DNA from: Promethearchaeota archaeon
GTDB lineage: Archaea; Asgardarchaeota; Thorarchaeia; Thorarchaeales; Thorarchaeaceae
Length of the DNA stretch: 61,334 nt
Assembly: GCA_014728035.1 (NCBI GenBank)
Contig: WJMJ01000045.1
Span: 1-61,334 of the forward strand
Direction: 5' to 3'
Of this stretch, positions 123-39,500 are shown piece after piece. The notes beneath the pieces are model-generated. The model saw only the letters and a program-made list of their open reading frames with translations, was not told the origin of the DNA and did not search any database. Numbering within the stretch: position 1 is the first letter of the stretch; the number at the start of each line of letters is the position of its first letter. Made by a program: the position numbers and the translations under genes.

Positions 123-347
123 CTAAAAATGAACGGTACCACTTCCTGTTGTAGTTGATGGAATATCTGAGATTATAGAGTAATCATCATAGAATGTATC
201 AGTATTTGTTATATCTTGTTGCTCCTTATCAGTTTCATTAGGCACAACAGAAACAAATGGATTTGCTACTAATGAAGTAGCAAATGTAGAAGCAGCAAGT
301 ATCGCAATTATTGAAATAACTAATAGAGTTTCGCTCTTTGCACGCAT
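123..347 (-). CDS. Short signal-peptide-bearing ORF, possibly a truncated surface-protein N-terminus
   Basis: 74 aa with a basic N-terminus and hydrophobic stretch (LLVISIIAILAASTFA), then a Thr/Asp-rich segment. GAGGT RBS-like sequence upstream. Ends abruptly at TAG inside an imperfect inverted repeat. Confidence 0.5.
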   Translation of the reverse strand: MRAKSETLLVISIIAILAASTFATSLVANPFVSVVPNETDKEQQDITNTDTFYDDYSIISDIPSTTTGSGTVHF

Positions 348-538: not shown

Positions 539-2005
539 CTACGTTATTCCGTGTTGGTCGCCTCGTATTTTCCTTCTCAATCGGAGCCTCAAGTCATCCA
601 GTTTTCCAGAAATTTTTCCTTTTTCTTTCCAATAGGGTTGTATCTCATCAAAAGACATGACATCAAAATAGAGTGGACAAGCCCCTGTACAATATTCGAA
701 ATGTTCGCAATTCTTACATCCTTCCGGAGCGAAATCTTTCTCTCTCCAGAATTTTGCTGCTCTTCCATTCCAGACCTTATCGAATCCATCCTTAAGCAAA
801 TTACCAACAGGTTCACTGAAACTTGAACATGGAAGTAGATTGCCTTCTGCATCAACCGATAACAAACCATCACAACACGCACATGCTTTTGCTCCTAATC
901 CATTAGCAATTGGATTGAAGATACAGACCGGGGTTGGAGCATACCATACAAAACTGATTTGGCGTTTGTTAGCTTTTCGTTTCACACGTCTTACAATATC
1001 TCCAATTTCCGAGTATGTTATCATCAACTCATCCCGGAGTTTAGCAGCAGTACCAGTATAGATCACCATGTTCATACTGAAATAACTAAGATCTAGCTCA
1101 TCAACATGAAAATCTACTAATTCCTCCAATTTTTCTGCATTAGGTCTACATATGGTAGTATTACAATGAGTATAGATTTCTGTAGAATGAAGATTCTTGA
1201 TTCCTTGTACTGTTTGAATAAATGCTCCGGATACTCCAACGATGTAATCATGTGTTTCTGCATCAGGCCCCTCTATTGAGACCTGTGCACTATGCAGCCC
1301 AGCATCTACCAACTTCCTTACATAATCTTCATCTGCACATTTTCTTCCATTGGTTATCAGATTAACACGAAGATTTTTCGATTTTGCATAAGCTATTAGC
1401 TCGAAGATGTCTTCTCGTAGAGTTGGTTCACCACCAGTAAAAGATAGACTTGGAACATGAGCATCATCGACGATTATGTCAATGACTCGCTTCACCTCTT
1501 CAGTTGACATCTCTCCAGATTCTCTATAGGGTGAGTAGGCATAACAAAATCTACACTTGTTATTGCATCGGTACGTGACAGCTATCTCACTAAGAACAGG
1601 GTATCGTATCTCTCCAGTTCCATAAGGGATAATCTCTGCTGTTTTGTATGAGTAGATATTATAATTCCCTGCTGTCATACTACTCAGGTCTCCAACAAAG
1701 GCAGCAAGGTCATTTAGAATCGTTTGGCGATTAGCTCCCTTTTGCTTCTCGAATTTCTCCACTACTTCTTCTATTGACTGATTTTCCATCAACATCTTCA
1801 GCATAGTAAGTGCGGTACTATTCAGGTGCATGACCCTATTGGGTCTAAGAATCAGTAAATTGTCCTCTGGTCGCACATGAAAATAATCCCTGATATCATC
1901 AATGAATCCAGGTACCCATGCAAGTTCTTCCATTGTGAAATCATAATTTGGCGGATATTGGTGGGACATATTGATTAGTAAGGTTTCTTTGTCTCTATTA
2001 ATCAT
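539..2005 (-). CDS. Radical SAM/SPASM peptide maturase with N-terminal PqqD-like (RRE) domain
   Basis: CxxxCxxC (CNNKCRFC), FTGGEP, ITNG, SIEG and HDYIVG core. SPASM cysteines in CACCDG..GNLLPC..CKNCEHFEYCTGACP. N-terminal 'HLNSTALTMLKML..SIEEVVEKF..ILNDLAAFVGDL' has the PqqD pattern. The true start may be 1969. Confidence 0.92.
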   Translation of the reverse strand: MINRDKETLLINMSHQYPPNYDFTMEELAWVPGFIDDIRDYFHVRPEDNLLILRPNRVMHLNSTALTMLKMLMENQSIEEVVEKFEKQKGANRQTILNDLAAFVGDLSSMTAGNYNIYSYKTAEIIPYGTGEIRYPVLSEIAVTYRCNNKCRFCYAYSPYRESGEMSTEEVKRVIDIIVDDAHVPSLSFTGGEPTLREDIFELIAYAKSKNLRVNLITNGRKCADEDYVRKLVDAGLHSAQVSIEGPDAETHDYIVGVSGAFIQTVQGIKNLHSTEIYTHCNTTICRPNAEKLEELVDFHVDELDLSYFSMNMVIYTGTAAKLRDELMITYSEIGDIVRRVKRKANKRQISFVWYAPTPVCIFNPIANGLGAKACACCDGLLSVDAEGNLLPCSSFSEPVGNLLKDGFDKVWNGRAAKFWREKDFAPEGCKNCEHFEYCTGACPLYFDVMSFDEIQPYWKEKGKISGKLDDLRLRLRRKIRGDQHGIT

Positions 2006-2087
2006 TAGGTAGTGAAGTACTAAAATAATCGAAAAGCTGAAATCCTTATCAGATATTGTTCATTATGAATCTTCAGGAGATTATACA

Positions 2088-2483
2088 ATGAGTAACGGAG
2101 AGATAAAATTACCCTATGGTACAATCAAATCTAAGAAATTGGTCATGCACTTTAGTGCTTATGATATCGATTTACCTGTCATTGCAGCTGGTATTCGTGA
2201 GAGAATGGACGTTCTCAGGGAGCTAGGTGTATCCTTTGCAGGATTCGGTACAGAAGTTCCAGAAGAGATGACTGAGCAAAGTCCTGCGCTTGTAAAAGCC
2301 TTCTTCGAGTTTGTAGGGACAAGTTCAGATGCAGATGTGATTCTGAAAAGAGCATATCATCTGATTTGGGGTGGTATGATTGAAGAGTTCCCTGATCTCC
2401 TTGAATGGGCAGCTGCTAAATCCGATTTGTCCAATCTAACCTTTGCACAGGCAGATGTTATGCGAGCTCGTAAAGGTGACTAA
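2088..2483 (+). CDS. Hypothetical protein, first gene of the operon divergent from the rSAM gene
   Basis: 131-aa ORF with AGGAG RBS. No recognisable motif. Confidence 0.75.
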   Translation: MSNGEIKLPYGTIKSKKLVMHFSAYDIDLPVIAAGIRERMDVLRELGVSFAGFGTEVPEEMTEQSPALVKAFFEFVGTSSDADVILKRAYHLIWGGMIEEFPDLLEWAAAKSDLSNLTFAQADVMRARKGD

Positions 2484-2498
2484 TGGAAGTAACTGGTT

Positions 2499-2813
2499 AT
2501 GCCTAAAATAGAGGTTTCAGATGTGCTATACGAATTGCTCGAACGACAGGCAAACAGAAGAGAAGCAGAATCAGTTTCTGACCTCGTAAACTCAGTTCTT
2601 ATGAACTATTTACTCAAGCATGATAGAATGGGACAGCTTCATGTTCCTCTACCTACGTTCTTAATGTCAAGTGCAGACACTATTGCTTCAGTCCTAGCCA
2701 CAATGAATACAATAGATTGGTACAACAGTCAAGAGGCAATCGATATCATTTCAGACAATTTAGAAACAGCAGAAAAACTTCTTCGAATAACAGCACAGAA
2801 TCTAACCAAATAA
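2499..2813 (+). CDS. Ribbon-helix-helix (CopG/MetJ-like) domain protein
   Basis: N-terminus MPKIEVSDVLYELLERQA..ESVSDLVNSVLMNYL fits the RHH strand-helix-helix pattern. Confidence 0.65.
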   Translation: MPKIEVSDVLYELLERQANRREAESVSDLVNSVLMNYLLKHDRMGQLHVPLPTFLMSSADTIASVLATMNTIDWYNSQEAIDIISDNLETAEKLLRITAQNLTK

Positions 2814-2836
2814 TAACTACAAAGGAGAAATAAGAA

Positions 2837-5008
2837 ATGAAACGTCATGTTGTTTATTTAATTGTCCTTTCTCTATTCATATCTGGGATATTTCCTGTTT
2901 TATTTGCTAATCCAGTAGCTTCTCAAGATACAGTTGCAGTGAATGAGAGTATCTATGTAGATGTCTTTGTCTTACCTAATGGACGAATAAACGTCACCTA
3001 TTATATGACCCATCGTGTTGATAGTGGGTCAATCGGTGGTTATGATTTGGTTGGTATCCAAGAGAACGTAATTCACGATCCCAGTCGCTGTTATGTGGAG
3101 ATGGATGGTGATAGACATAATTTGCAGGTCACACCCATCACAGGAGGATTTGGACTTGACTGGACTCCTCGTACTCAAGCGGGAGAAACTGTTCTTGTTG
3201 TTTTCAGTTATTATAGCTTAAATCGAATTGTGGAACGAACAACTGGTACTTTCACATTGGAAGGATCTGGTGAATCTGTCACTGGAGATATGGGCGTCTT
3301 TAATTGGGCACCAGTTCAATGGGAGTGGGATGTGAATTTGTATAATGTTCGCGTGGTCTATCCGATAGAGATGAATTCTGCTTGGATTGATGGTGGAGGT
3401 GGCATTTCTTCAGATGGCGCAGATCATGCTGGATATGTTGTCGATTACCGACAAGGCGTGTGGGATGAGTCTAATAACCAATTTGAGTATGATGAAGACA
3501 ATCTCCTTGCTTATCCGTCGAATCCGTCTGCAAGTCCTCGAAATTTCAGTGTGAGTCTCACAGCTGAGCCAGCTATTGCTTATGATCATCTTCGAATATT
3601 TCATTACACTAACTGGAGCTTCTATGCTGACCATCTTCTTCCAGGCTCCATTGGATATGCTATTGAAGAAAATCTGAATGTATATGCAGAAACGGAATTT
3701 GAACTTGAATTAGACGTATACAACTATGGTGATTTTGAGTTGACTGGAGTTACAGTTGATTATACGATTCCTGAAAATCTAACATTAATCTCTAGTACAA
3801 CTTTGGGGTACCAAGCAACACTTGAAGGAGGAGAGAGCTTTCATATCTCTTATACCATGATTGCTGATAATTTACCCGCGATTCTAAAGGTTACTTTCAC
3901 TATAGCTGCAACAAACCTGAATCAATCAGATTGGGAAACATTCACTGTAAATGTATATGTACAAGAATATATTCCTCCACTGGTTGACGCTGGACTTCTT
4001 ATTCAAATCATCCTATTTGGGCTAGGCGGAATTGCAGTTCTAGGTATTACAGTTTATGGATATCGTCATATCACAAGTGGATATGGTGCTAAATGGGAGG
4101 TTGATGAAACCACTTCTTATGAGAGCCCAACTATCTCCATACAGACTTTTGGCACTCCTGGAGAAGTTGCTGACCTCGATCCAGTTGAATCCGCATTCTT
4201 TGTAAATACTCCTCGTCAGAAACTTGTTGGAATGATTCTGATGTCATGTGTGCGTAAAGGTGCGATTCGAGTTATATCCACAGACCCTCTCAAAGTATCA
4301 GATACAGGAATACGATTCGAAGACCTTACTTACTATGAAGCAGCATTAACTGATTGTATAACAAATAGCGAATTCCAATCTGATTGTCTTGACAATATAC
4401 TGGAGGATTTAGCTGAAAAAGTACAAGAGAAGTCTTGGGATGCTGATTTCGAAGCTACTAAAGAAGCTCACGATGAACGAGTTGAAGGAGCTTGGGAAGA
4501 GTTGGAATCCGAAACAACTGCTGATGGAAGAACAGACTATTACTTCAATAGGACATATCGAAACCGTGGTTGGGCTTGGTATTGGCTATACCAACATCCG
4601 CGACATGATAGCAGGATTGGTGATAGTTTAACTCCATCAGGTGGTACAATTAGCCCACCTGAGATTCCTACGTGGTTTGCTGATATGGCGGATGCTGCTG
4701 GTCATTCTATTACTACTGCTGGTAGAGTGGTCGGCGATGTGGCAGAAACCACTGGAAAAATCATTGGGAATGTAACTAGTACAATAGGTGAAATTATTGG
4801 TGGTGTTGGCAAGATTATTACCGAACCATTGAAACCTATCATTGAAGGCACCAGCCGATGTGTTTCTCATGATGCCTGTCATAGTGCCTGTGTCAGTCAC
4901 GATGCTTGTCATTCAGCATGTCATAGTGCCTGTCATAGTGCCTGTGTCTGCCATTCAGCATGTCATAGTGCCTGTCATAGCGCATGTGTATCTGGTGGAT
5001 ATCGATAA
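2837..5008 (+). CDS. Single-pass membrane protein (DUF2207-like architecture) with C-terminal Cys/His (CHSA)n repeat tail
   Basis: Signal peptide, beta-rich ectodomain, Ig-like segment, one TM (LLIQIILFGLGGIAVLGITVYGY), cytoplasmic 'DLDPVESAFF..LMSCVRKGAI..LTYYEAAL' segment, and tail CVSHDACHSA...CVSGGYR. AAGGAG RBS. Confidence 0.85.
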   Translation: MKRHVVYLIVLSLFISGIFPVLFANPVASQDTVAVNESIYVDVFVLPNGRINVTYYMTHRVDSGSIGGYDLVGIQENVIHDPSRCYVEMDGDRHNLQVTPITGGFGLDWTPRTQAGETVLVVFSYYSLNRIVERTTGTFTLEGSGESVTGDMGVFNWAPVQWEWDVNLYNVRVVYPIEMNSAWIDGGGGISSDGADHAGYVVDYRQGVWDESNNQFEYDEDNLLAYPSNPSASPRNFSVSLTAEPAIAYDHLRIFHYTNWSFYADHLLPGSIGYAIEENLNVYAETEFELELDVYNYGDFELTGVTVDYTIPENLTLISSTTLGYQATLEGGESFHISYTMIADNLPAILKVTFTIAATNLNQSDWETFTVNVYVQEYIPPLVDAGLLIQIILFGLGGIAVLGITVYGYRHITSGYGAKWEVDETTSYESPTISIQTFGTPGEVADLDPVESAFFVNTPRQKLVGMILMSCVRKGAIRVISTDPLKVSDTGIRFEDLTYYEAALTDCITNSEFQSDCLDNILEDLAEKVQEKSWDADFEATKEAHDERVEGAWEELESETTADGRTDYYFNRTYRNRGWAWYWLYQHPRHDSRIGDSLTPSGGTISPPEIPTWFADMADAAGHSITTAGRVVGDVAETTGKIIGNVTSTIGEIIGGVGKIITEPLKPIIEGTSRCVSHDACHSACVSHDACHSACHSACHSACVCHSACHSACHSACVSGGYR
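4859..5008 (+). repeat. Coding tandem repeat, 12-bp unit (tgtcatagtgcc / tgtcattcagca) encoding CHSA
   Basis: Seven CHSA units and two CVSHDA units read directly. Synonymous variation between units indicates protein-level selection. Confidence 0.95.
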
Positions 5009-6587: not shown

Positions 6588-7808
6588 GTGAATGAAATGG
6601 CAAAAGAATTTGTCAGACTTTGTGGTGAGGTTGGAAACTTTTCTGAGCGAATTACAGGTGTAAGCATTGTTGATGCATATTTCGGACCAGAAGATTTAGA
6701 CCCAAAAAGGCAGAATGAAAATAAAGATGCGGAGGTATTAATTCACGATTTGGATGAGTTCATAGACACTCTGGGTGAGATTGATGAACCCATCCGTAGA
6801 AAGTATTTGCAAGCTGAAGCTGAATCGATGAAGATGACCGTTAAGTGGTTAGCTGGATTAGAAACCAATTACTCAAATATTGTTCGAACAATGTTTAACA
6901 TCGAACCCAAAAAGTTCTCTAAAGGTATTATTGATGCCCAACTTTCTGAAGTAGAAGCTGCACTAGAACCTTTTCCAGGTGTTGATTTAGCTGAGAAAGC
7001 AAGTCTGTTCACTAAAGAAGGAGAAGTACGTGGTAAAGCATTGCGTGATTTCATAGATAACGAATTGCAATCAAAATCTTCCGATGTCGGTCAACTCTTT
7101 AAAGAACGAATCTACTCGCTGATCGGTCGTGATGTGACTGACAATGGCGTGAAATATAATTGTGTGACAGATAAACCTTGGAGTGGATACAACTATTTTC
7201 AGGGCAATTACACATCTGTTAATGAGTTCAATGTTGATAGGCCTATGAATACCGATTCTGCACTTGCAGTGGTATACCATGAATATGAGCATCACGTTTC
7301 CAATCTTTGGCGAGAACGTGCTTATCATGAGGAGGGATTTGTTGAGCTTTCAATAGTTCCCCTTCACACAGGACGATGTGTAATCTCTGAAGGTACTGCA
7401 GATACTGCACGTGACTTTTTGGGAGTTAAGGATAGTAGTGACAAAGTCAAAGCATATGATGCTCTTTACAAACTTCGAAGGATGATTTCAATCAATAGTG
7501 CTATCATGCTAAATCTTGAGAAAAAATCAATTGATGAGACCGTTCAGTATAATGTAGAGAGAGGACTTAGAAGTGAAGGTGCTGCTAGGTCTGGACTTGC
7601 TTTTATTTCTCCTGAAACACGAGATGGCAAGGTGAATATCTGGAGTCCTTATGTATTTACTTACTATATTGGAAGAACCGATTTTGTTTATCCTATTTTT
7701 TCAAAAGCTAAAGAACAAGGCGAGTTAGATAAGTTCTATCAGACCCTTTATCTAAATCCATTTAGTGGATCAAGTGCTACTTGGAAAGAATCGTTTTCTT
7801 GGCTATAG
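6588..7808 (+). CDS. Zincin-type metallopeptidase, DUF885-like
   Basis: HEYEHH (HExxH), downstream ISEGTA glutamate ligand and YVFTYYIG motif. Confidence 0.65.
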   Translation: MNEMAKEFVRLCGEVGNFSERITGVSIVDAYFGPEDLDPKRQNENKDAEVLIHDLDEFIDTLGEIDEPIRRKYLQAEAESMKMTVKWLAGLETNYSNIVRTMFNIEPKKFSKGIIDAQLSEVEAALEPFPGVDLAEKASLFTKEGEVRGKALRDFIDNELQSKSSDVGQLFKERIYSLIGRDVTDNGVKYNCVTDKPWSGYNYFQGNYTSVNEFNVDRPMNTDSALAVVYHEYEHHVSNLWRERAYHEEGFVELSIVPLHTGRCVISEGTADTARDFLGVKDSSDKVKAYDALYKLRRMISINSAIMLNLEKKSIDETVQYNVERGLRSEGAARSGLAFISPETRDGKVNIWSPYVFTYYIGRTDFVYPIFSKAKEQGELDKFYQTLYLNPFSGSSATWKESFSWL

Positions 7809-8954: not shown

Positions 8955-10334
8955 TTATTCAGCCTTCTGAGCTTTCTGATACGCTGAATCTAGCTCTTTG
9001 GACATTGATGATGGGATTGCGGTCTTTCCAGTGACACTACCTTCTTTCCTTCGGATGAAGATGTACAGAAGTGTGACATATACGATATCGAAAGTTCTCA
9101 GTACCAATGTAGCTGGTATTCCAGCAAAGACTATTGCTAATATAGCAAAAATGAAACCAACAAAGATATCCTGTCCCAGAGCATAACCTGCAACAAATCC
9201 TCCAATTCCAAATCCTAGGAATATGAAGATTGCTAGTACAAGAAAGCCCCATCGAACAGCTGTTTCTTTTATCATTACGTCTACAAAGTTTTTACGTACC
9301 ATTCCCGCACTTCGTTTGATGCCTTTTGTAGCACTCAACTCCTCTGCAACCATTGCTGGTATCGTGAAGTAGTTTACTAGCATCCAAACCCATCCAAGAA
9401 TGCCTGAGGCAGCTGATCCAACTGCTCGTCCTCCTGGGCCCGATTCTCTAGTAATTGCTCGGATTATCAATCGTATAATAGCGACGATAACGCTCATAAT
9501 ACTAAGAACAATGAGTCCTCCAATCACACTCAATGACCCTTTCACTCCATCTCCAAGACTTGGGTCTCGTCCGCGCATGTAGATATAGGTCATAGCAGAT
9601 GATGTTGAATACGCAAAATTGTAGAAGAATATGGTTAGGAATAAGTAGAGAATGAATCCAACACCCAGAGGCCATCCATTTTCAATTGTTAGTTCTTCTG
9701 TACCCATCAGAACTTGGTCTGGAGTAAATTGCAAAAGTATTGCTCCCCATAGTAGAGCTGATACAAGGGTGAAGACCATTGTGAGAAGTGGTGGTACAAA
9801 CACACCCTTTTCATCTAGACACACTTGACCAGTTAGCTTGATTATTTCTCCCGCTCTTCTTACTCTATCTTTGAAGATTGTAAGCATTAAAATGAAGAGG
9901 ACGAGTGTTATCAAACCAGGTATTAGGATTGGCCATGAATTCAATAGCATAGAGAATGTCATAGCGCCTGTTGCAATCAACATGACTGGAATCGACCACG
10001 TAATAATCAGCATGAATGCTGCTCCAATGTATATGAGCGTTCCACCTAATCTCCTTGCGGCAGCAGCAGCAGCAATTGCCATGATAGCACTAAGCACAAT
10101 TAACCCCGCAGCAGCACCAATTATATACCAGATGCTTTGAGTTAGCAGGTCAGGTAGTCCACTTGTTTGCAGAAAGTTCATGACCTGAGTTCCATATTCT
10201 TGCCAGAGCATCCATAGTGAGTATGCTCCATAAGCAAAGAACAGTCCGAAAACTATCAACAGACCAAAAACTTTTCCTTTATGACTGGGATAGCTTCCCT
10301 TTTTGTGATATTCAATCAAATCTTTTGGTGGCAT
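8955..10334 (-). CDS. Multi-pass membrane protein resembling choline transporter-like (SLC44/CTL) / DUF6159 family
   Basis: About 10 TM segments. 'KDRVRRAGEIIKLTGQV..VPP', 'IGGLIVLSIMSVIVAIIRLII' and 'NYFTIPAMV..KGIKRSAGMVRKN' blocks occur in CTL-family order. Confidence 0.6.
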   Translation of the reverse strand: MPPKDLIEYHKKGSYPSHKGKVFGLLIVFGLFFAYGAYSLWMLWQEYGTQVMNFLQTSGLPDLLTQSIWYIIGAAAGLIVLSAIMAIAAAAAARRLGGTLIYIGAAFMLIITWSIPVMLIATGAMTFSMLLNSWPILIPGLITLVLFILMLTIFKDRVRRAGEIIKLTGQVCLDEKGVFVPPLLTMVFTLVSALLWGAILLQFTPDQVLMGTEELTIENGWPLGVGFILYLFLTIFFYNFAYSTSSAMTYIYMRGRDPSLGDGVKGSLSVIGGLIVLSIMSVIVAIIRLIIRAITRESGPGGRAVGSAASGILGWVWMLVNYFTIPAMVAEELSATKGIKRSAGMVRKNFVDVMIKETAVRWGFLVLAIFIFLGFGIGGFVAGYALGQDIFVGFIFAILAIVFAGIPATLVLRTFDIVYVTLLYIFIRRKEGSVTGKTAIPSSMSKELDSAYQKAQKAE

Positions 10335-26977: not shown

Positions 26978-29900
26978 TTGATGCTAAAACGGATTACCCT
27001 CTTGATATTGGTTTTACCCCTTTTCTTCATTCCTTCCTCTTTTGCTTCAACCAATATGGTTGTTGATTTCCATAATGAAGAAGTGAATATTGGATCTGAT
27101 CTTATTCAAGCACTCAATACCAAATCTTATGCATTGGCTGAAGATACAGAGATGGTGGAAAGTGTCCTTTTGTTTAACAATGAACTTACCCCAGGAGTGA
27201 TTCGTGTTGTAGAATCAACTGGTATCCGTTTTTCACGACAAAGATCCTCAATAGTTCATGTGGGACGGGTTTATCTGGCTTCGGTTCCAACACTTGATTC
27301 ATTATATCGATTATCTAGATATGGTCTTGAATCTGCAACTCTAGGAAAGAAACAGTTCTTTCCCTCATTGATGTCTTCAGTTCCAAGTATAAATGCTCCC
27401 GAAACATGGAACTTGAAGGATAATGATCTTCAATCAATCGATGGAACAGGTTCTACTGTTGCAATAATAGACACCGGAATTTATTGGATGCATCCCACTT
27501 TTTGGAGGGCAACTACGGATAACATAACTGTGATCAGCGATGGAGGAGATTATTATGCTGATTTGGACAATGATTCTGTTGCTGATTTTAACGAAGGGCC
27601 GATTGCAGAAGCAAACGAAGGTAGTGGTGTTATTGATGCTGATGAACATTATCTATTCATAGATATCAATGATGACGGTTCATTTGATTATACTGATGGT
27701 GACAGATGGCTAGGTGGTTTTGATGCCAACGATGATGGTCTAATCACTTTACCTACAGAACCTGTTGTCTTACTTGGAGAATCGAAGGTTAAGCTCCTTT
27801 ACGACCAGAATTCCGGCAATGTATACCAGCGAGGAGTTAATCTTACTTCACAAGCACCAGTGAATTCGGACTCACATGGTCATGGAACTCATGTTGCATC
27901 AATTGTTGCTGGTGGACAAAGAAATCTTACTTCCATGTTAGGTTCTGCACCAAATGCAGATCTTATCATTATTCGCAGTCCATTAGATTCAGCTTCTATT
28001 ATTGATGGTATCTACTTTGCCATGGAAACAGAAGCTGATGTAATCAATATGTCATTCTCTAGCTATCTGGGTTTTCTTGATGGGTCTGATTTAGAAGATA
28101 TAGCAATTACCGAAGCATTTCGTACAAAAGGAATAATCTCCACACTTGCTGCTGGCAATCTTGGCGGTCGCTCAAAACATGCTCATATGGATATAGGTCC
28201 TGGTAGTTTGGGTAGTGCAGGGTTATCAGTGTCAAACCCTGGTCAATTTTCATTTCTCAATGTATTATGGAAGAGCTCAGACCAAGATGAACACGTCATT
28301 CTTGTTTCTCCCCAAGATGTTGAAATCGATCTGGGTGCATTTTCATCGATCAGGGGAAACGCTTACCTTTTAGATGAGGAATATATCCAAGCTTATGTTT
28401 TTGCAGATGTAAGCATCAAAGGCACAAATCGCGTAATTGTTCAAATAGCCACGAATGAGCATCAATGGAATACAGGTGCTTGGCGTTTGGATGTAACGAA
28501 TCCTGAAGGCGAAACAATCTCAGTAGACTGTTATGCTTGGGATAATAATTGGGGTGGTACTAATTTGAGATTCACTTCCTCAATTGAAAATACCTGTACA
28601 TTGAGCTCGCCTGGAACATCAGACCTTGGTGTCTGTGTTACTTCTTATGACGAAGGAACCGGACAGATTAGCTTCACCTCAAGTAGGGGTCCTCGAATTG
28701 ATGATATGCCAATCACAATAATTGCAGCCCCGGGATCTGATATCCTTGCAGCTTATCCAAGCTTGAATACATTATGGACACAACGTTCTGGTACCAGTAT
28801 GGCTGCTCCCCATGTTGCGGGAGTACTTGCATTGTTAAAGCAAGTAACAGGAAACACAGATGGGTGGTTGGAACATACCGCATTATCGACAGGTGCTGGA
28901 GGATTCTCTGACCACTATGATTCACCCGATAACTCCTGGGGGTATGGTTTGGTCGATGCACTCTGGTCAGTTAGACATCTTCAAAAATATCCTTTAACTA
29001 ATGATACAACACTTGAAGATTGGATCGGATTTGACCCAGTTGTATCAGACCCAGCCGACAGTTGGATTGCTGATGGTCTAGATATCCGTGACATTCGAAT
29101 GATACGAAACTTGAGTTGGAGTTATTTTGCTACATCTTTCAACGCAATGCCTAATTTTGTATCTGATAATGTTCTCACGATTGACTTAGATGTTGATTCA
29201 AATCTCGGTACTGGAAAGAATGGTGCCGAATATCAATATAATGTCACTAATGGTGCAGTATATGGATATCAATGGTCTGGTTCTAGTTTTGTTTCCATAT
29301 CTACTGTGAACTACATTGTCAATGACAGTTCAACGGTATTTGTACAAGTAGAACATCCATCTACAATTTCCTCTGGCCGATTCAGAATAACTACTAGTAA
29401 TTCCACACATACACTTGATATCATTTCATATACCGATATGATAAACCAATGGAGACCTTTAGTCAATTCGATCGAATTTGACTATTCTAACAATAATTAT
29501 CAGATAGAAATTGTTGTATCAGATGAAGATACAAGAATAGCTAATTTCAATATTGAATGGGAACTACTAGATGGATTCTCAGAGAGTTTGCTAACAGATT
29601 CTCTATCTCAAAGTGATACCTATTCCTTTAGTATCAATACCTCACAATTGGAACATGAAACTCTTGCAAGGATTTTGATATTTGAACTTACATCTGATTC
29701 AGATTCGTATCAATTATCTCCAATCGTACTTTCAGAGGGGTATAGTGCGAATTTTGGCTTTTCATCAACAGTATTATCTGCTACTGAATTCAGGTCTGGA
29801 TTTTTGATTGAAGAATACATTGAAGGAGAATTTGCCTTAGAAGGTCATCTTCTGGTTGATGCTGTATCAATATCCTTCAAGAGCAGTATAGGCACCTACC

Positions 29901-30151
29901 TAAATCTAACTTTGAATGGTGAAAATGGAATTTATCATGTTAAAGTAGCAACCAATGTACTAACACCTGGCGAGTACTCTGTATATGCAGTTGCTGAGAG
30001 CATTATGGGTGTTAAAATCGTACAGTCTGTTGGCACAATTCGGATTATTGAAGACAACACGATGCTCTTTTTACTGGGTGGAACTATAATAGGAGTACTC
30101 GTAGTAGTTACAGCGCTTCGTCAAATCATGTCTAAAAAGGAGAGGTCCTGA
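26978..30151 (+). CDS. Membrane-anchored S8 subtilisin-like serine protease
   Basis: Signal peptide, VAIIDTG, HGHGTHVAS, AAGN, SGTSMAAPHVAG and a C-terminal TM. Confidence 0.93.
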   Translation: MMLKRITLLILVLPLFFIPSSFASTNMVVDFHNEEVNIGSDLIQALNTKSYALAEDTEMVESVLLFNNELTPGVIRVVESTGIRFSRQRSSIVHVGRVYLASVPTLDSLYRLSRYGLESATLGKKQFFPSLMSSVPSINAPETWNLKDNDLQSIDGTGSTVAIIDTGIYWMHPTFWRATTDNITVISDGGDYYADLDNDSVADFNEGPIAEANEGSGVIDADEHYLFIDINDDGSFDYTDGDRWLGGFDANDDGLITLPTEPVVLLGESKVKLLYDQNSGNVYQRGVNLTSQAPVNSDSHGHGTHVASIVAGGQRNLTSMLGSAPNADLIIIRSPLDSASIIDGIYFAMETEADVINMSFSSYLGFLDGSDLEDIAITEAFRTKGIISTLAAGNLGGRSKHAHMDIGPGSLGSAGLSVSNPGQFSFLNVLWKSSDQDEHVILVSPQDVEIDLGAFSSIRGNAYLLDEEYIQAYVFADVSIKGTNRVIVQIATNEHQWNTGAWRLDVTNPEGETISVDCYAWDNNWGGTNLRFTSSIENTCTLSSPGTSDLGVCVTSYDEGTGQISFTSSRGPRIDDMPITIIAAPGSDILAAYPSLNTLWTQRSGTSMAAPHVAGVLALLKQVTGNTDGWLEHTALSTGAGGFSDHYDSPDNSWGYGLVDALWSVRHLQKYPLTNDTTLEDWIGFDPVVSDPADSWIADGLDIRDIRMIRNLSWSYFATSFNAMPNFVSDNVLTIDLDVDSNLGTGKNGAEYQYNVTNGAVYGYQWSGSSFVSISTVNYIVNDSSTVFVQVEHPSTISSGRFRITTSNSTHTLDIISYTDMINQWRPLVNSIEFDYSNNNYQIEIVVSDEDTRIANFNIEWELLDGFSESLLTDSLSQSDTYSFSINTSQLEHETLARILIFELTSDSDSYQLSPIVLSEGYSANFGFSSTVLSATEFRSGFLIEEYIEGEFALEGHLLVDAVSISFKSSIGTYLNLTLNGENGIYHVKVATNVLTPGEYSVYAVAESIMGVKIVQSVGTIRIIEDNTMLFLLGGTIIGVLVVVTALRQIMSKKERS

Positions 30152-30153
30152 AA

Positions 30154-31437
30154 ATGAAAGTAGTCCTTGTTGGTTACGGTCCGAGTTCTGTTGCAGCTGC
30201 AACTACACTCAGAGCTTTTGATAAAGATGCTGAGATTTGTTTGATAACTCGAGAAGAACATCCAGCACACCGGAGACCTGGGGTAGCTCATGCGATAGAA
30301 CACCCAGATTCAAGCGGAATCGATATTGCGGATTCGTCTTTTGAGTCACTGCACGAAAAGAATATAGAGGTAATAACTAGTGCAGATGTTATTTCGGGTG
30401 ATTCTTCTACTAACACCTTACTATATCTTGATTCAAAAGGTAATGAAACTCAAATTCATTATGATTACCTTATTCTTGGAGCAGGAGGTGTGCCTAAAGT
30501 TCCTGTCCTACCAGGGTCTACTTTGAAAGGGGTTCTTACAATTCAAACAATTGAGGATACCATTCCAATTGGCAAGAGGATTGATAGTATTCAGGATGTA
30601 GTCATTATTGGTGCTGGTTTCAGTGGTATTGAAATGGCTGAAAAATTTTACAAGCTAGGAAAGAACACTCACATGATTGTTCGTTCAAGATTAATGCGAC
30701 GTCAATTGGAAGAGGTGATGAGCACCGAACTACTCCATCGTCTACCCCGTGATTTGCATGTCCACTGTGGAGTATCTCCCGACAAAATAAATGGTGATGA
30801 TTCAGTCAAATCAGTAAGTGTTAATGGTATGGAGATTGCGGCCGATATTGTTCTATTTATGACTGGTGTTCGTCCTAATATTCAACTTGCAAAAGAAATT
30901 GGCATTAGAATTGGATCTCTAGGAGGAATCGTAGTTAACGAAATAATGCAGACCTCCATCGATAATATCTATGCAATAGGCGATTGTATTGAGCTGTTAG
31001 ATGGTCTGACTGGAAAACCAATTTTGATGCCAATTGGTAGTACAGCTGCTAGGGCTGGAAGACAAGCTGGTGCTGCGGTAGCTGGGTCTAAAAAAATCTA
31101 TGATGATATTTCATTACGTCTTCAATATGATAGACTATTCAATACGGATATTGTGTGTATTGGTCATTCATCTACAACAGCAAAAAACCTTGGACTAGAA
31201 ACTGAAATTCATCATTTTGAGGATTCTTTTGAACATGCTCATGTATCCTTGATTACAAAAAAGGATGGTACTCTAATTGGGGGACAAGTTATTTCATCAC
31301 GGCTAGGGTCTCAAATAGGATTTCAGATTTTAGAGCGTATTGAAGAAAAAACAAAGCTTGACGAGAGTCCGTTATTGGACTCCCGACATAAACAGCTTGA
31401 TAGTTTACTGGACTCGATTTTTGGATCTATTCGATAG
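30154..31437 (+). CDS. FAD-dependent pyridine nucleotide oxidoreductase (NADH oxidase/CoADR-like fold)
   Basis: VVLVGYG, YDYLILGAG, IIGAGFSGIEMA, TGVRPN and IYAIGDC. Confidence 0.88.
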   Translation: MKVVLVGYGPSSVAAATTLRAFDKDAEICLITREEHPAHRRPGVAHAIEHPDSSGIDIADSSFESLHEKNIEVITSADVISGDSSTNTLLYLDSKGNETQIHYDYLILGAGGVPKVPVLPGSTLKGVLTIQTIEDTIPIGKRIDSIQDVVIIGAGFSGIEMAEKFYKLGKNTHMIVRSRLMRRQLEEVMSTELLHRLPRDLHVHCGVSPDKINGDDSVKSVSVNGMEIAADIVLFMTGVRPNIQLAKEIGIRIGSLGGIVVNEIMQTSIDNIYAIGDCIELLDGLTGKPILMPIGSTAARAGRQAGAAVAGSKKIYDDISLRLQYDRLFNTDIVCIGHSSTTAKNLGLETEIHHFEDSFEHAHVSLITKKDGTLIGGQVISSRLGSQIGFQILERIEEKTKLDESPLLDSRHKQLDSLLDSIFGSIR

Positions 31438-34306
31438 CGGGCGGTTGTGAATCGTCCTCCCATAATGGGGTCCATTCTTCTTCTTTTTCTGGACTCTTTG
31501 GTTTTCTGAGATATCTTCGAATCCCTATATACGCTAAACCTATTCCTACTATAGCTAATAGACTATATATTACAGTCATAACAACTTGGTCGTCAATAGG
31601 TCTTACAGGAATCAGAATAGTCTTTGATATTATTCGAACATTTCCCTCACTGTCCGTCGCAACCACCTTAACGTTATAGAAACCTGCTCTCTCCATAATG
31701 AATGAATATCTATAGACATAACCTAGGCTAGATTGAAAATCACCCGTGACATTGTTTCCTTCAGCATCCATCAGAGTAAAAGTTACGCTTTCAAGGTCTT
31801 CATCAAACACATATGCGGTTATATTAGCTGGTTCACCAACTGAATTTGACTCCAATGCTAAATCGAAAACTCTAGGTCTCTTTGGTATGATTTCTTGTGC
31901 CAAGTTCCTAAGTAGTCTAAGATTATCCGCTCCTCCCTCCAATGCATCGTAGATAGTGTTATCGTATAATGTCGATCCATCAGAAATGACAATCACTTTT
32001 CCATGACCTGATTCAACTGTTGCAACTATAGCTTGAGTCTTTGCAGAATCTACCCAAAATAGTCCTTGGGCTCCAGCTACGGAAGGATCAACTGAAAGTG
32101 TTCCACCAGTGACGATGTATAGATTCTCGACACCCTCAACTAGTGAGTGATTCTCCACAGCTCCTCCGTATCCCAATCCATAGAATAGTCCTGAGAATTG
32201 GTCTACACCCTCCCCTATACCATATCTATCAACAGTTATTCCATACGGTTCAAGTATATCATTATATGAATCGAGAGCAAAACTTGCTGTTTGTTCTACG
32301 CTATCATAATATTCCGATAGCATGATTAAGGTTCCTCCATCCTCTACAAATTGGTGGAGTGCTTCAATTTCTTCTGCGTTGTAGGATGTTTCAGTATCCA
32401 TAATCATGAAAATATCCGATGTTGCTAAATCGTTTTGATCGATTCTTTGTGGTACAAAATCGGAGGGATTTCCAAACTCCTCCATTAGTACTCCCTTTTG
32501 TTTTAAATACTCATCAAAATATTTGTATGATTCGGGTGAGTCGGGATCGTCCGCAGAATGATGTGCCATGTCAACTAGTAATTCTCCCCCAAATGATGTC
32601 AATTGAACCTCTAAATCCATTGAAGATGTTACTGCTTCAGAAGAGGATATAATTTTCAATTCGCCAAAGTATTTTCCAATATCGGAAAGTGGCAATCCTT
32701 CAGGCACCTCTGTCATTATTTCGAAATAGGAATACCCTTGAGAAACTGTGACTGTAGCTGGTCTAATATTGATGAATTTACTTGCATTTCCTTCAACGAT
32801 GATCTCGTGACTTCCTAGTGACTCTGTGGAAATAATTGTCGCATTGAGCGTTTGTTTTTCCTCACCAACAATTAGAACCTGTGAGCTTCCTGGTAGTGTT
32901 GGATAGCTTATTGGGCTGATTATTGTAATCTCTCCAGATTTTTGATCTAGCAGTTCTACTGATTTACTGATGTTTGCAAGGCCGAATCCCTGTGCCATTG
33001 GATCAAATCCAATATCGGTTGAACCTGCCATCAAAAATGCTTTCACTTGAATCGGACTCAAGTCGGAATCTTTTTCAAGTAAAATCGCTGCTAACCCTGC
33101 AACTAGTGGTGCTGATGCGGAAGTTCCAGACCATATTGTATAATCATTTCCGAATTGAGTAGTGTTGTATGGAGGAAATTCCCAAGATGCATCTGAAGCT
33201 CTAGCTGAAATAAGCTGGTATCCTGGAGCAATTAAATCTGGTTTTGGATAATTTCCAATAGGTTCCGTTTGAGACCGGGTCACTGGACCCCGACTACTAA
33301 AGTCAACAATACCTGTATCGCGAATTGAAGCTCCAACTGTAATTGCCTCTTCTGTTATTCCAGGCGAATTGATACTTGATGTAGCAGGACCACTGTTACC
33401 TGCTGCTATTACCACATTTACTCCTTGAGCAACAACCTCTTCAGTTGCTTCAGATGAAGGTTCTTGCAGAAGTCCAAGGTCTGTCCAAGCGCCTCCCAGA
33501 CTTAGGACGATTACATCTGCGCCGTTATCTGCAGCATATTCTATTCCTTGAGCTATCAATGAATCCTCTCCAGCTCCGTCTTCATCGAGCACTTTGACAA
33601 TCATCAAATCAGCACCTGGTGCCATTCCAGTGTATTGCCCTCCTGAAACCTGTCCTGAACCTGCTACTAACCAGCTCACAGCAGTCCCGTGACCATTGTC
33701 ATCATAAGCAGTAGTTTCTTCATTTATCAAATCATGAAAATGAGATATTCTTCCAATCAAGTCTGGATGATTCGGATCACAACCAGAGTCAAGAACTGCT
33801 ACAGTGACTCCGGTTCCATTAAAACCTTGATCCCATATGTCTGGAACATGCATTAGACTATCCGGGTGAATATATTCATTGTTACTAGCCAATGCAAAAG
33901 TTCCTATTTCTTGATTCGAATCTTCCAACCTGTATTCTTTATCATACATTATTGATAGAACATCTGGAATCTCACTCAATCTAGTGATTTCATTTTGATT
34001 TGCATAGGCTGAAGTAACAGATATGATATCGAATGAATGCCGAATTGATATGCTTGGCACATTCAGTTTTATGATATGTTCCATTAAGCTTGCAGTAGTA
34101 CCTTTTTCAAATCGGATAGATATTGGATAATCGCAATCTACCGAATTCATATCCATTTTATTGCGGAGATATTGACCTATTACTGGATTTACTTCAGTGG
34201 TTTGTTTGTTGTGACCCAGTAATAATGCGGTTGAAGGAATAATCAACAATGCAATAATTACAAATGCAATTGTTCGAGTCTGGAAGTTATTTTCTTTATG
34301 TGACAT
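31427..34306 (-). CDS. Membrane-anchored S8 protease with DUF4350/GATase-like domain
   Basis: VAVLDSG, DDNGHGT, AAGNSG and SGTSASAPLVAG. Later 'EIEALHQFVEDGGTLIML..GHGKVIVISD' and a C-terminal TM. Confidence 0.92.
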   Translation of the reverse strand: MSHKENNFQTRTIAFVIIALLIIPSTALLLGHNKQTTEVNPVIGQYLRNKMDMNSVDCDYPISIRFEKGTTASLMEHIIKLNVPSISIRHSFDIISVTSAYANQNEITRLSEIPDVLSIMYDKEYRLEDSNQEIGTFALASNNEYIHPDSLMHVPDIWDQGFNGTGVTVAVLDSGCDPNHPDLIGRISHFHDLINEETTAYDDNGHGTAVSWLVAGSGQVSGGQYTGMAPGADLMIVKVLDEDGAGEDSLIAQGIEYAADNGADVIVLSLGGAWTDLGLLQEPSSEATEEVVAQGVNVVIAAGNSGPATSSINSPGITEEAITVGASIRDTGIVDFSSRGPVTRSQTEPIGNYPKPDLIAPGYQLISARASDASWEFPPYNTTQFGNDYTIWSGTSASAPLVAGLAAILLEKDSDLSPIQVKAFLMAGSTDIGFDPMAQGFGLANISKSVELLDQKSGEITIISPISYPTLPGSSQVLIVGEEKQTLNATIISTESLGSHEIIVEGNASKFINIRPATVTVSQGYSYFEIMTEVPEGLPLSDIGKYFGELKIISSSEAVTSSMDLEVQLTSFGGELLVDMAHHSADDPDSPESYKYFDEYLKQKGVLMEEFGNPSDFVPQRIDQNDLATSDIFMIMDTETSYNAEEIEALHQFVEDGGTLIMLSEYYDSVEQTASFALDSYNDILEPYGITVDRYGIGEGVDQFSGLFYGLGYGGAVENHSLVEGVENLYIVTGGTLSVDPSVAGAQGLFWVDSAKTQAIVATVESGHGKVIVISDGSTLYDNTIYDALEGGADNLRLLRNLAQEIIPKRPRVFDLALESNSVGEPANITAYVFDEDLESVTFTLMDAEGNNVTGDFQSSLGYVYRYSFIMERAGFYNVKVVATDSEGNVRIISKTILIPVRPIDDQVVMTVIYSLLAIVGIGLAYIGIRRYLRKPKSPEKEEEWTPLWEDDSQPPAIE

Positions 34307-36547: not shown

Positions 36548-39500
36548 ATGAATAAGAAGAGGATAGCTCTCGTTCTGTTCCTTGCAGCAGCCATGAGTCT
36601 CTCAATGTGCTTTGCACCCATGGTACCTGTTGCACAGGCCGAAGATAATGCTCTTCCATCATTCACCCCTGAACAAGTTCAGGAGATTGAAGACTTTTAC
36701 AATAAAGTCGAATCGCCTGATTTTGTCCCAGAGGTGCATCACCTTATTTCATCTTGGCTTGCTGGCGAAGATGTTACAAATAAGATGGTTATGCGTGATG
36801 GAATGCCTAGCATTATGATCTACGGTACTGCCAATATGGATGTGGACAGAATCGAAGAAATAGTCGATGTCAGCTGGAAAGCTGACTTAAGAGCGCTCCA
36901 AGTTGTTAAGGCTTACTTGCCTTCAGCTGATTCTGTTGATGCACTTCTTGCAGTAGACGGTGTTGCCACCATTTCTGCTGATGAGAAAGCATTTGCATTC
37001 GATGATCTGAACAAGAACATCGATGTTGCACCCGTAACCGAACCTGGTTTGGATATGGAACAGGTAGCTGATATAGTAAACGCAAACGACATGTGGACAG
37101 ATTACACTGGTGCTGGTGTGACAGTCGGTCACGTTGACACTGGTTGTGACTTCGGTCACCCCGCTCTACAACATGCATTTCACCCTGATTCCTATGACCC
37201 ATCTGGTTATGCAATCACACCAACATATTACCATGCTAACAGTTCAGAAGTTACGAACATGACTGCATGGGAAGAAATGGGTTACCTGCTAACTTACGAG
37301 GATAGCGGTAGCGTTTATGTGAATGTTACAGGTTGGGATCCAACTACAAACAACAATGGTGGACCACGAAGTCTTATGGGACTCTTACCTCCATTTGGTG
37401 ATGGATATCCATACGGTAGTAACATTGGATTTGTAGGTCTCTACGAGTGGGCATGGGGTATTAGCAACGCATCAGAATTTGTTGCAAATGAGCTCTGGAA
37501 GGATTGGGAACTCCCATCCGGTATATCTGGAGATTACCAACTCGGTTGGATCTTCCAGCAGAAACAGGGTCCATATACAAAAATGTTTGCTCCCGCTCTA
37601 GTATTCAACAACAGCGGAACCTGGAACCTAGTCATTGACTGGGAAGGTGCAGAGGGCTGGTCAGCCTTTTGGAATGGTGCTATGTATTGGGAGAGTCTCG
37701 ATCTTAACGATACTGCTGACAGAACCATGATTACCGACTTGTTTGACTGGAGCTTTGCAGATGACTACGCAGATGGAGATATATACTCTCTAGCTAGTCC
37801 TATTGTAGCAGAAGACATAGACGGAGACTCAATTGTTGATTTGAGCCTCGGTGCTCTAGCATGGACTTATGACGATGCTGGCTGGTTCAGCGACGAATTA
37901 ATGTTCCAAGGTTTCCGTTCAGATGGTGATGCAATTTCACTATACTTTGACTTTGGTACTCACGGTACCGCTACTGCAGCACACGTTGCAGCTCGCGACA
38001 CTACTGAGATGTACTATCAAGCAGATAATGACAAATATGTCAACTTCACTGGAATTGCACCAGATGCAGAAATTCTCTCAGTTGCCAGTATTACTGCTGG
38101 TGGCGATTACGGAGCATATCTGTGGATTTGTGGTTTCGACTACAACTCAACCCTTGATGAATTCTACTACAACCCATCTAGTACACACCAATCAGATCTT
38201 ACAACTAACTCTTGGGGCTGGATTACAGAACCAAGCAGCGAATTTAACTACTTATCACTAACATGGACTATTCTATCAGTTCCTGGCTACCTCGATCCAT
38301 CCTACCCAGGCGTATTTCACGTCTTTTCGGCAGGTAACGAGGGTGCAGGTTTCATGACTGGAGCTCCACCAGGCTCAAGCCCAGGTGTACTCACAGTTGG
38401 TGCCTCAACAGCTAGCGAATGGCTAGGATACCTATATGGTGATACTCAACCCTATGCAAATGCATTAGCAAGCTTCACAAGCAAAGGACCAAACTTCTCT
38501 GGCTATCCAAAGCCTGATGTTGTAGCTCCTGGTCTTGCTGATTACTCAGCTAATCCATGGCATGGTCAATACCTAGGACAGTACTACTATCCAAGTCCTT
38601 ACGGATACGTTCCAACCGCTAACACTACACTATTCAGTGGTACAAGTCAGGCAGCTCCTATCGCAGCTGGTGTTGCAGCACTTGTTGTAGACGCATTAGG
38701 CTCTACACCTGCTCCATCACGAATTAAGACTATTATGCAGAGTACTGCAGATGATCTTGGTTACGATCCAGCAACACAAGGCTTCGGTCTTGTTAACGCA
38801 CAGGAAGCATGTGGATTTGCAGATGGAACTGGAATCAACTTTATTGGTGAAACAGTAGACTCCATGAACAATTATGCAGATATGCTCGATGAAGCATGGA
38901 ATTACTGGGGTACTATCTCTGGTCTAGGTGTATCAGTCAACAAGACTGCTTTCGACCATCCACGTGATATCAATGATGCATCAATCTTCTTTGGCTATGC
39001 TATGCCTGGTGAGACTCTTACAGCTCAATACAAGGTATATGCAGCAGCTGACCACTCAACTGTAATGGCCGGTGCTGGCACCGTCTATAATTGGTTCCCA
39101 ACTTATGCGGAATCATTCAGCTTTGATGGTGTAACAGATGCATACAATGACACAGCTTACATGACTGATCCTTACTTGATGTACGGATTCTACAATATTA
39201 GTGCAGAAATGAACGATCCAGCTTTCGATACTGCTCTCGATACATACGATTACATGACTGTAGTTGTATCATTTGATGCAGGAGACGTTGCTGGTGCTGA
39301 GCCCTGGATGTTCCTATACGACTGGACCGACAACAACACTGATGGAATGCCAAACGCCTACAACCAGACTACTGGTAGTGGTGACGAGCTTGACAGACTA
39401 ACCAGTGCATCAGGTCCTACCAACGTGAACATGATGCCATATGCTGTTAACACCGGAGTTTTGGGTATTACCCATAACTACACGCTAGTGATTCATGATC

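Follow-up and report, generated by a model that had tools for sequence, protein, structure and literature searches.

A radical SAM enzyme and a membrane protein with a His-x-Ala-Cys tail form a conserved pair, probably an enzyme and its substrate, in Thorarchaeota and bacteria

We analyzed a 61,334-nt stretch of DNA (the window) from a Promethearchaeota archaeon of the Thorarchaeaceae (GenBank assembly GCA_014728035.1, contig WJMJ01000045.1) and found, at positions 539 to 5008, a radical S-adenosylmethionine (SAM) enzyme encoded beside a receptor-like membrane protein that ends in a Cys-rich repeat. Enzymes of this kind cross-link small peptides resembling antibiotics, and the pair recurs in many anaerobic bacteria. 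What we observed was the anatomy of the two proteins, their pairing across genomes, a tail under strong selection and a juxtamembrane motif that is conserved. We consider it probable that the enzyme is dedicated to this partner, docking on an internal strand and cross-linking the cytoplasmic tail. We lean, if only slightly, toward a fuller picture, in which a membrane receptor carries its own internal leader and C-terminal core, and up to nine or more cross-links stay on the intact protein and serve in signalling or metal handling. The pair appears to be a widespread and undescribed variant of modification resembling that of peptides made on the ribosome and modified after translation (RiPPs). 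All four open reading frames (ORFs) of the locus had the coordinates first given for them in an earlier note made from the sequence alone; the features of the pair are as follows.

539 to 2005, minus strand: radical SAM enzyme with RiPP recognition element (RRE) and SPASM domain, 488 aa as called, 476 aa from the probable start at 1969
677 to 925, minus strand: SPASM cysteines C361, C375, C378, C393, C430, C433, C439 and C443
1544 to 1567, minus strand: CxxxCxxC motif of the SAM cluster (C147/C151/C154), invariant in every homologue group counted
1682 to 1852, minus strand: RRE (PqqD-like domain, PF05402), residues 52 to 108
2837 to 5008, plus strand: 723-aa single-pass membrane protein, proposed substrate, distant DUF2207 relative
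2918 to 3616, plus strand: outer beta-sandwich domain with a ribophorin-I lumenal/aminopeptidase-N N-terminal fold (predicted model)
3638 to 3973, plus strand: immunoglobulin-like (DUF11/CARDB-type) domain, an insert in Thorarchaeota that aligned bacterial homologues do not have
3998 to 4054, plus strand: transmembrane helix, residues 388 to 406 (hydropathy)
4118 to 4135, plus strand: leader-like strand Y428-x-x-P431-x-I433, proposed RRE docking site
4172 to 4606, plus strand: folded cytoplasmic domain, weakly GOLPH3/Vps74-like (predicted model)
4859 to 5008, plus strand: (His-x-Ala-Cys)n tail ending in GGYR, proposed modified core

The tail was reported earlier as 49 Cys-rich residues. Encoded at 4859 to 5005, it indeed holds 11 Cys and 9 His, with nine H-x-A-C units before the final GGYR. 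The Cys repeat stands, while its unit, given at first as C-x-x-x, is better written H-x-A-C, because spacers enter only between a Cys and the next His and, in homologue tails, never within H-x-A-C itself. Mean identity over Thorarchaeota was 97% for the tail, 55% for the ectodomain and 34% for the transmembrane helix, and the tail codons differed from those of 25 relatives by 691 synonymous and 32 nonsynonymous changes. Given these two results, the repeat is not a product of chance or slippage; judged from its codons, it is under strong selection as protein. Homologues at 25 to 33% identity ended in the same repeat type, with 3 to 15 Cys. The Ala was as invariant as the Cys and His, and Trp or Tyr now and then took the place of the His. 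In bacterial H-x-A units the residue at the variable position was Ser (451), Asp (108), Gly (37), Ala (5) or Asn (2). In a sister clade (the Cys-Ala clade) the tails were Gly-flanked (Cys-Ala)n, almost without His, and mixed His/Cys-Ala tails (P0072) joined both types.

The identification of the enzyme as a radical SAM protein with a fused PqqD-like domain and a SPASM domain held, with all three domains above their Pfam cut-offs: Radical_SAM (PF04055) at 91.9 against 29.5 bits, the RRE (PF05402) at 31.5 against 23.4 bits and SPASM (PF13186) at 31.4 against 21.5 bits. The CxxxCxxC core, the N-terminal RRE and the eight conserved SPASM cysteines, where seven to eight are expected for two auxiliary clusters, place it with the RRE-fused radical SAM/SPASM maturases. 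Seven of the eight SPASM cysteines were near-invariant across the whole family; C378, the eighth, is carried by 104 of 105 His-tail enzymes versus 17 of 79 in the Cys-Ala clade, where seven cysteines were counted in 36 of 79. Likely equivalents of the catalytic-site proximity positions in PMC10288494 are Y155, F189, T218, S243, S394 and S395. Among the best 25 of 98 NCBIfam matches the enzyme was below the cut-off for every family, the best being AhbD (152.7 against 500 bits).

Bacterial loci were gathered by scanning GTDB genomes with the enzyme alone, the neighbor not being used in the search. The tailed protein lay directly upstream of the enzyme in 79 of the 79 evaluable loci, the last of the 80 having just 92 nt of upstream sequence. 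The loci span Nitrospiraceae, Hydrogenedentes, Elusimicrobia, Planctomycetota, Armatimonadota, Omnitrophota, Verrucomicrobia, Gemmatimonadota, Clostridia, Gammaproteobacteria and others. For the Cys-Ala clade, 71 of 80 metagenome loci held a homologous membrane protein ending in (Cys-Ala)n; eight of the remaining nine had less than 800 nt upstream, and one came from a lineage with unlinked genes. Across 161 Asgard genomes, counted after the discordant ones had been inspected and with kin that are not independent, both genes were present in 65, neither in 92 and just one in four (enzyme only in three, substrate only in one). One of the three enzyme-only genomes has a broken substrate gene and two are 89% complete; the substrate-only case lies at a contig end. 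One Asgard family has the genes unlinked, and six of its seven genomes retain both, with the tail intact in both copies that are not cut by a contig end. In genome G014 the module is missing exactly between two flanking genes, both of which are retained. The co-occurrence with a tailed DUF2207-like protein that the earlier note proposed to look for was therefore borne out across genomes.

The two histories also agree: of 73 splits with good support in the enzyme tree, 64 recur in the tree of the tail-less substrate, both trees separate the His-tail from the Cys-Ala clades, and the tail type tracks enzyme residues 378 and 394. A bacterial donor of the Thorarchaeota copy was considered and rejected: the Thorarchaeota branch off outside the clade of the bacteria sampled, and their sister is not the set of bacteria that carry the 131-aa gene described below. 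A plasmid search with a Cys-Ala-clade query gave no match. In genome G162 (L273:1585-3229) the substrate gene stops after 82 codons beside a gene that by eye resembles a tyrosine recombinase, the enzyme being intact, and the break is possibly an integration site. Genome G167, at first taken as substrate-only, proved to be a false match to another Cys-rich protein, an unrelated 277-aa protein with Cys at every fourth residue (L279:4057-4890), possibly the target of a different radical SAM enzyme. Gene numbers varied at two loci, with two enzyme copies near one Cys-Ala-tailed gene in L067 (genome G037) and two tandem tailed genes followed by one enzyme in L202.

We found no small free precursor, in agreement with the earlier note: when small ORFs from 184 loci were clustered, no family reached beyond 15 loci, and the inspected ones were shadow frames of neighboring genes. 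Common small-ORF shadows suggested an apparently adjoining tRNA-like sequence in five loci of the Cys-Ala clade (L184, L187, L212, L223 and L233). Nor was a second ORF with the docking motif found in 80 loci or elsewhere in this genome. The co-occurrence and the absence of a conserved small precursor argue for the tail of a full-size membrane protein as the substrate, as the earlier note had suggested. The classical picture of a RiPP, a short precursor with an N-terminal leader encoded near the enzyme gene, does not describe this locus.

The membrane protein, the gene for which is single-copy in its genome, was confirmed as single-pass with a signal peptide, its only hydrophobic segments being residues 5 to 23 and 388 to 406. 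Lys and Arg were commoner after than before the transmembrane helix in 84 of 109 homologues, and hydropathy and the positive-inside rule place the C terminus inside, again as first proposed. The ectodomain was modeled with a pLDDT score (predicted local distance difference test) of 95, and its beta-sandwich matched Ost1 (ribophorin I) with Z 15.6, a root-mean-square deviation (rmsd) of 3.1 and 185 aligned residues. The cytoplasmic part was modeled as a confident domain followed by a helical linker and a low-confidence tail. The domain matched GOLPH3/Vps74 (Z 6.7, rmsd 4.4, 159 aligned), the top match in both searches but a weak one (Foldseek E 0.2 to 0.7). We do not read these two fold matches as eukaryotic signatures, since the family is largely bacterial. 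The cytoplasmic domain gave 478 clusters at 50% identity, many of them fragments; the library of representatives consists mostly of fragments and frameshifted ends and so yields no clean count of tail-less family members. The protein scored below the cut-offs of DUF2207_C (PF20990; 18.7 against 33 bits) and DUF2207 (PF09972; 15.5 against 24.4 bits), but 9 of 27 homologues matched DUF2207, which makes it a distant DUF2207 relative. Homologues of the Odin/Hel/Loki type (L065:7608-10382, P0019 and P0072) have a very different N-terminal half and reach 975 aa; some have mixed His and Cys-Ala tails, and the L065 enzyme has just seven SPASM cysteines.

The earlier note had placed RRE binding within the last ~120 aa of this protein. 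Motif conservation instead favors residues 428 to 433, just inside the membrane. The Tyr or Trp and the Pro of Y428-x-x-P431-x-I433 were present in all aligned sequences, both Thorarchaeota (25 of 25) and bacterial (79 of 79), and the full [YW]xxPx[ILV] motif in 93 of 106 proteins (background 4% per 20-mer) and in 42 of 47 proteins of the Cys-Ala clade. The monomer model shows this segment without secondary structure, and 180 to 280 residues separate the motif from the tail across homologues (~240 in the 723-aa protein). RREs of lasso-peptide systems bind an actinobacterial YxxPxL leader motif (PMC6784204), and among solved RREs the nearest to the RRE profile of the enzyme were TfuB1 (E 0.018) and TbiB1 (E 0.17) of lasso-peptide systems, each a weak match. 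A co-fold of the RRE with residues 412 to 560 scored 0.53 against 0.13 for the best control, a weak support that came with no interface: of 80 solved pairs 58 reached the mark, as did 2 of 110 mismatched ones, and those reaching it at 0.60 or below were just 7 of the 80 solved pairs and both mismatches. The runs agreed in at least 70% of contacts, and the partner pLDDT was at least 69.

In the mechanism we propose, the membrane protein would insert with the beta-sandwich outside and the C terminus inside, and the RRE would then bind the internal [YW]xxPx[ILV] strand in the manner of lasso-peptide RREs on YxxPxL leaders. The tail, lying 180 to 280 residues further on, past the folded domain and a variable linker, would be fed to the active site, where each His-x-Ala-Cys unit would be cross-linked with the loss of 2 Da. 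In the last and weakest step, the rigid tail may bind partners or handle metal as a module at the membrane, together with accessory membrane proteins. Whole-protein substrates have precedent in the enzymes QhpD and CrpC (PMC13692751).

Should the tail be modified, we see an even chance, by analogy, of a thioether from the Cys to the Ser, Asp, Asn or Gly two residues before it, or to the His. We favor this chemistry because Cys is invariant in both tail types, because Asp, Gly and Ser occupy the variable position and because QhpD, CrpC, CteB and StsB offer precedents; thioethers to Asp and to Gly are documented, and Ser is similar to the Thr that serves as acceptor in CteB. A three-residue cyclophane joining His to Ala, as made by HaaB, would be a lesser possibility on similar analogical grounds, fitting H-x-A and its aromatic substitutions but not the Cys-Ala clade, and some other chemistry is possible to the same limited degree.

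Several points weigh against this account. Congruent trees and co-presence follow partly from linkage alone, and the link between tail type and enzyme residues rests largely on one deep split. Among the 10 Thorarchaeota without the system, 9 also lack the neighboring phosphoesterase and 7 the gene with an HExxH motif, and co-absence within Thorarchaeota is partly regional. The co-fold, without contacts, does not locate the docking site, and its score may be memory, RRE–leader complexes having already been solved. The Odin/Hel/Loki subgroup lacks the aromatic residue of the docking motif. Thioether-forming enzymes use an open iron site (PMC10177961), which C378 could fill; in ranthi- and sactisynthases this site is on auxiliary cluster I, held by three Cys ligands. 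Finally, 11 Cys and 9 His make a natural metal site too.

This last point underlies the alternative that survives best, although we consider it unlikely: the tail may be an unmodified metal or Fe–S site, serving as a sensor, store or cluster donor, with the enzyme acting elsewhere or being regulated by the tail. The i, i+4 spacing of the Cys and His, in a helix predicted at low confidence, suits such a site, and Zn-ribbon membrane proteins go with the system, both in the Cys-Ala clade and in Thorarchaeota. Metal binding does not need the invariant Ala, however, and it sits poorly with the Trp and Tyr at His positions and with a clade that nearly lacks His and uses the same enzyme family; moreover, a fused RRE marks peptide or protein substrates, and no other conserved candidate substrate was found.

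Also unlikely, and a little more so, is a giant RiPP precursor whose modified tail is cut off as a free peptide or cofactor. A leader-like motif followed by a C-terminal core that keeps its sequence and varies in its number of repeats (3 to 15 Cys) fits this explanation, and an accessory gene for a four-transmembrane protein, present in 80 of 80 bacterial loci, could provide processing or export. The loci hold no recognizable conserved protease or transporter, however; the HExxH gene at 6588 to 7808 is retained in three genomes without the system, no conserved cleavage site is evident ahead of the tail, and both the ectodomain and the cytoplasmic domain show good folding and conservation, more than a simple leader should require.

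Heme c attachment takes place outside the cytoplasm. Heme binding by the tail through overlapping CxxxCH, with the enzyme an AhbD- or NirJ-like protein of the heme pathway, is thus highly improbable for a cytoplasmic tail: the repeat does include C-x3-C-H and the top NCBIfam matches are AhbD and NirJ2, but these (NirJ2 at 146.4 bits) lie far under the 500-bit cut-off, and Cys-Ala tails have no axial His. Just as improbable is a true substrate encoded elsewhere as a small peptide, or provided by an accessory protein, with the membrane protein a linked bystander; very short precursors are easily missed and the 131-aa and four-transmembrane genes are conserved too, but the small-ORF clustering of 184 loci was negative, the accessory genes differ by clade while the pair does not, and both genes are retained when unlinked.

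Cross-linking of the tail by the paired enzyme, the account we prefer, has its closest counterpart in CrpC/CrpA of Methanococcus voltae (TIGR04463; PMC13692751, 2026), where an archaeal RRE–radical SAM–SPASM enzyme is likewise encoded beside a protein with C-terminal Cys repeats and thioethers were demonstrated on the whole protein CrpA. CrpA measures 28.8 kDa, begins with a leader and has a repeat of 17 residues that contains C-x-x-Q/D, and CrpC has 7 SPASM Cys (PMC13692751); here, by comparison, the partner is a 723-aa membrane protein with an N-terminal signal peptide, an internal leader-like motif and H-x-A-C units, and the enzyme has 8. The enzyme is not CrpC (TIGR04463, 57.5 against 525 bits). 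QhpD similarly makes RRE-dependent thioether cross-links on QhpC of quinohemoprotein amine dehydrogenase, a protein that remains a protein; QhpC, set apart here by description, is a small subunit with an N-terminal leader, three Cys-Asp/Glu links and another gene context. The CXXX-repeat system (TIGR04114/TIGR04115/TIGR04117; PF27846) shares Cys at every fourth residue, but its targets are small (a 98-position model), unlike the 723-aa protein. Membership was rejected, the enzyme scoring 31 against 350 bits for TIGR04115, the tail giving no TIGR04114 match (20-bit cut-off) and homologues reaching at most 18.7 against 50 bits for TIGR04117.

The His-type triceptides HaaB and HtkB (PMC11499958) resemble the tail in their aromatic-x-x pattern, in which His comes first and Ala third (HAA cyclophane), but involve small precursors without a role for Cys, and the Cys-Ala clade here lacks aromatics. 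The nine H-x-A units fit the aromatic-x-x substrate pattern of triceptide synthases, a motif that alone is not diagnostic; no triceptide maturase was among the best 25 of 98 NCBIfam matches, WgkB scored 88.6 against 650 bits, and HaaB was compared by description. The sactipeptide StsA, made by StsB (PMC10288494), has a CxCxC core linked to glycines that recalls the Gly-flanked Cys-Ala tails, but a small precursor and a stand-alone RRE set that system apart, and the enzyme here scored 96.8 against 625 bits. Lasso-peptide TfuB1/TbiB1 share a YxxPxL-type motif, which here lies within the protein, right behind the transmembrane helix, and the RRE here forms part of a radical SAM protein. DUF2207 proteins share the signal peptide, outer beta-sandwich, transmembrane helix, cytoplasmic domain and low-complexity end, while the 723-aa protein, below both Pfam cut-offs, differs in its Cys tail and enzyme partner.

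We found no paper on the pair under DUF2207/radical SAM, the tail motifs, TIGR04114/5 and Asgard RiPP/SPASM topics, although supplements and subscription papers could list the family. Many homologues of the 723-aa protein had a weak match to PF27846 (tSAM_targ_Cxxx_rpt), which tags some of these tails as radical SAM targets; the tail is therefore annotated, and the system not described. Whole-protein radical SAM cross-linking is documented for few soluble cases (QhpC and CrpA); the account, if true, would add an integral membrane protein whose leader is internal, in both prokaryotic domains. It would name a probable substrate for an orphan enzyme family that tools for precursor mining would overlook, and new His/Ala/Cys chemistry may come to light. 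Acetivibrio mesophilus N2K1 (locus L143) is a carrier available in culture, and a soluble fragment makes the account directly testable.

The genes accompanying the pair varied between clades, while the enzyme and the tailed protein were constant. Two lie between them in the window:

2088 to 2483, plus strand: 131-aa protein, probable accessory part, conserved beside the enzyme/membrane-protein pair
2499 to 2813, plus strand: 104-aa protein, optional, with an unconfirmed ribbon-helix-helix-like look at its N terminus

The 131-aa gene adjoined the pair in nearly all Thorarchaeota loci, was not found in 10 relatives without the system and had homologues upstream of the tailed protein in seven to eight bacterial loci (E 1e-26 to 1e-7); its product had no family match in Pfam or NCBIfam and no Atlas match at 0.9. 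The 104-aa gene was present in 11 of 27 Thorarchaeota loci and in no bacterial locus, and its earlier naming as a ribbon-helix-helix protein found no support, the best Pfam match being VAPB_antitox at E 0.1 in one of 10 members, with nothing in the PDB. The four-transmembrane protein of bacterial His-tail loci, 330 to 350 aa with ~4 helices, is encoded 3′ of the enzyme. A distant homologue (profile probability 97%, E 4e-11) lies on another contig of this genome, at C37:179690-180655 (L282:4688-5662); among relatives, 24 of the 26 that have the system carry it, as do 2 of the 10 that lack it, and it lies typically 10 to 27 kb from the enzyme. At C37:194402-195067 (L352) lies a gene for a membrane protein of 240 aa that ends in a Zn ribbon, the presence of which (26 of 36) is exactly the substrate's pattern and which was lost together with the substrate in G014. 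Both unlinked C37 genes probably belong to the system. Another small Zn-ribbon membrane protein accompanied 41 of 80 Cys-Ala loci; we do not claim homology with the Thorarchaeota gene, the alignment being limited to the 28 columns of the ribbon. The HExxH gene (plus strand, encoding 406 aa with no Pfam family) and the phosphoesterase were rejected as parts of the system, both staying in G014, which lacks it, and neither standing beside the bacterial pair.

Most enzyme orthologues begin ~12 codons further in, and the ATG at 1969 is probably the true start. The divergent layout described earlier stands, but from this start the intergenic gap would be ~118 bp and not 82 bp. Divergence is a Thorarchaeota trait: bacteria and most of the other Asgards have the pair adjacent and in the same direction. 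Close homologues that bear a name belong to Candidatus Thorarchaeota. Scans for sigma-70 promoters and terminators gave fewer matches than in shuffled sequence.

Elsewhere, the window opens (1 to 138; 123 to 347, minus strand) with a multicopy insertion sequence-like element that has 100% identical copies at many contig ends and interrupts a large surface-protein gene, the G001 orthologue of which is open for >1210 aa. C37 and WJMJ01000045.1 may be neighbors, because the repeat at the end of C37 is the one that opens the window. The gene at 8955 to 10334 (minus strand) encodes a 459-aa membrane protein (DUF6159, 40.8 bits; Choline_transpo PF04515, 29.8 against a cut-off of 26.9), a candidate archaeal CTL/SLC44-like transporter by sequence. 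Three large subtilase (S8) genes lie inside 15 kb (26978 to 30151, 31427 to 34306 and 36548 to 41314), one of them with a DUF4350/IFT52-GIFT-like domain.

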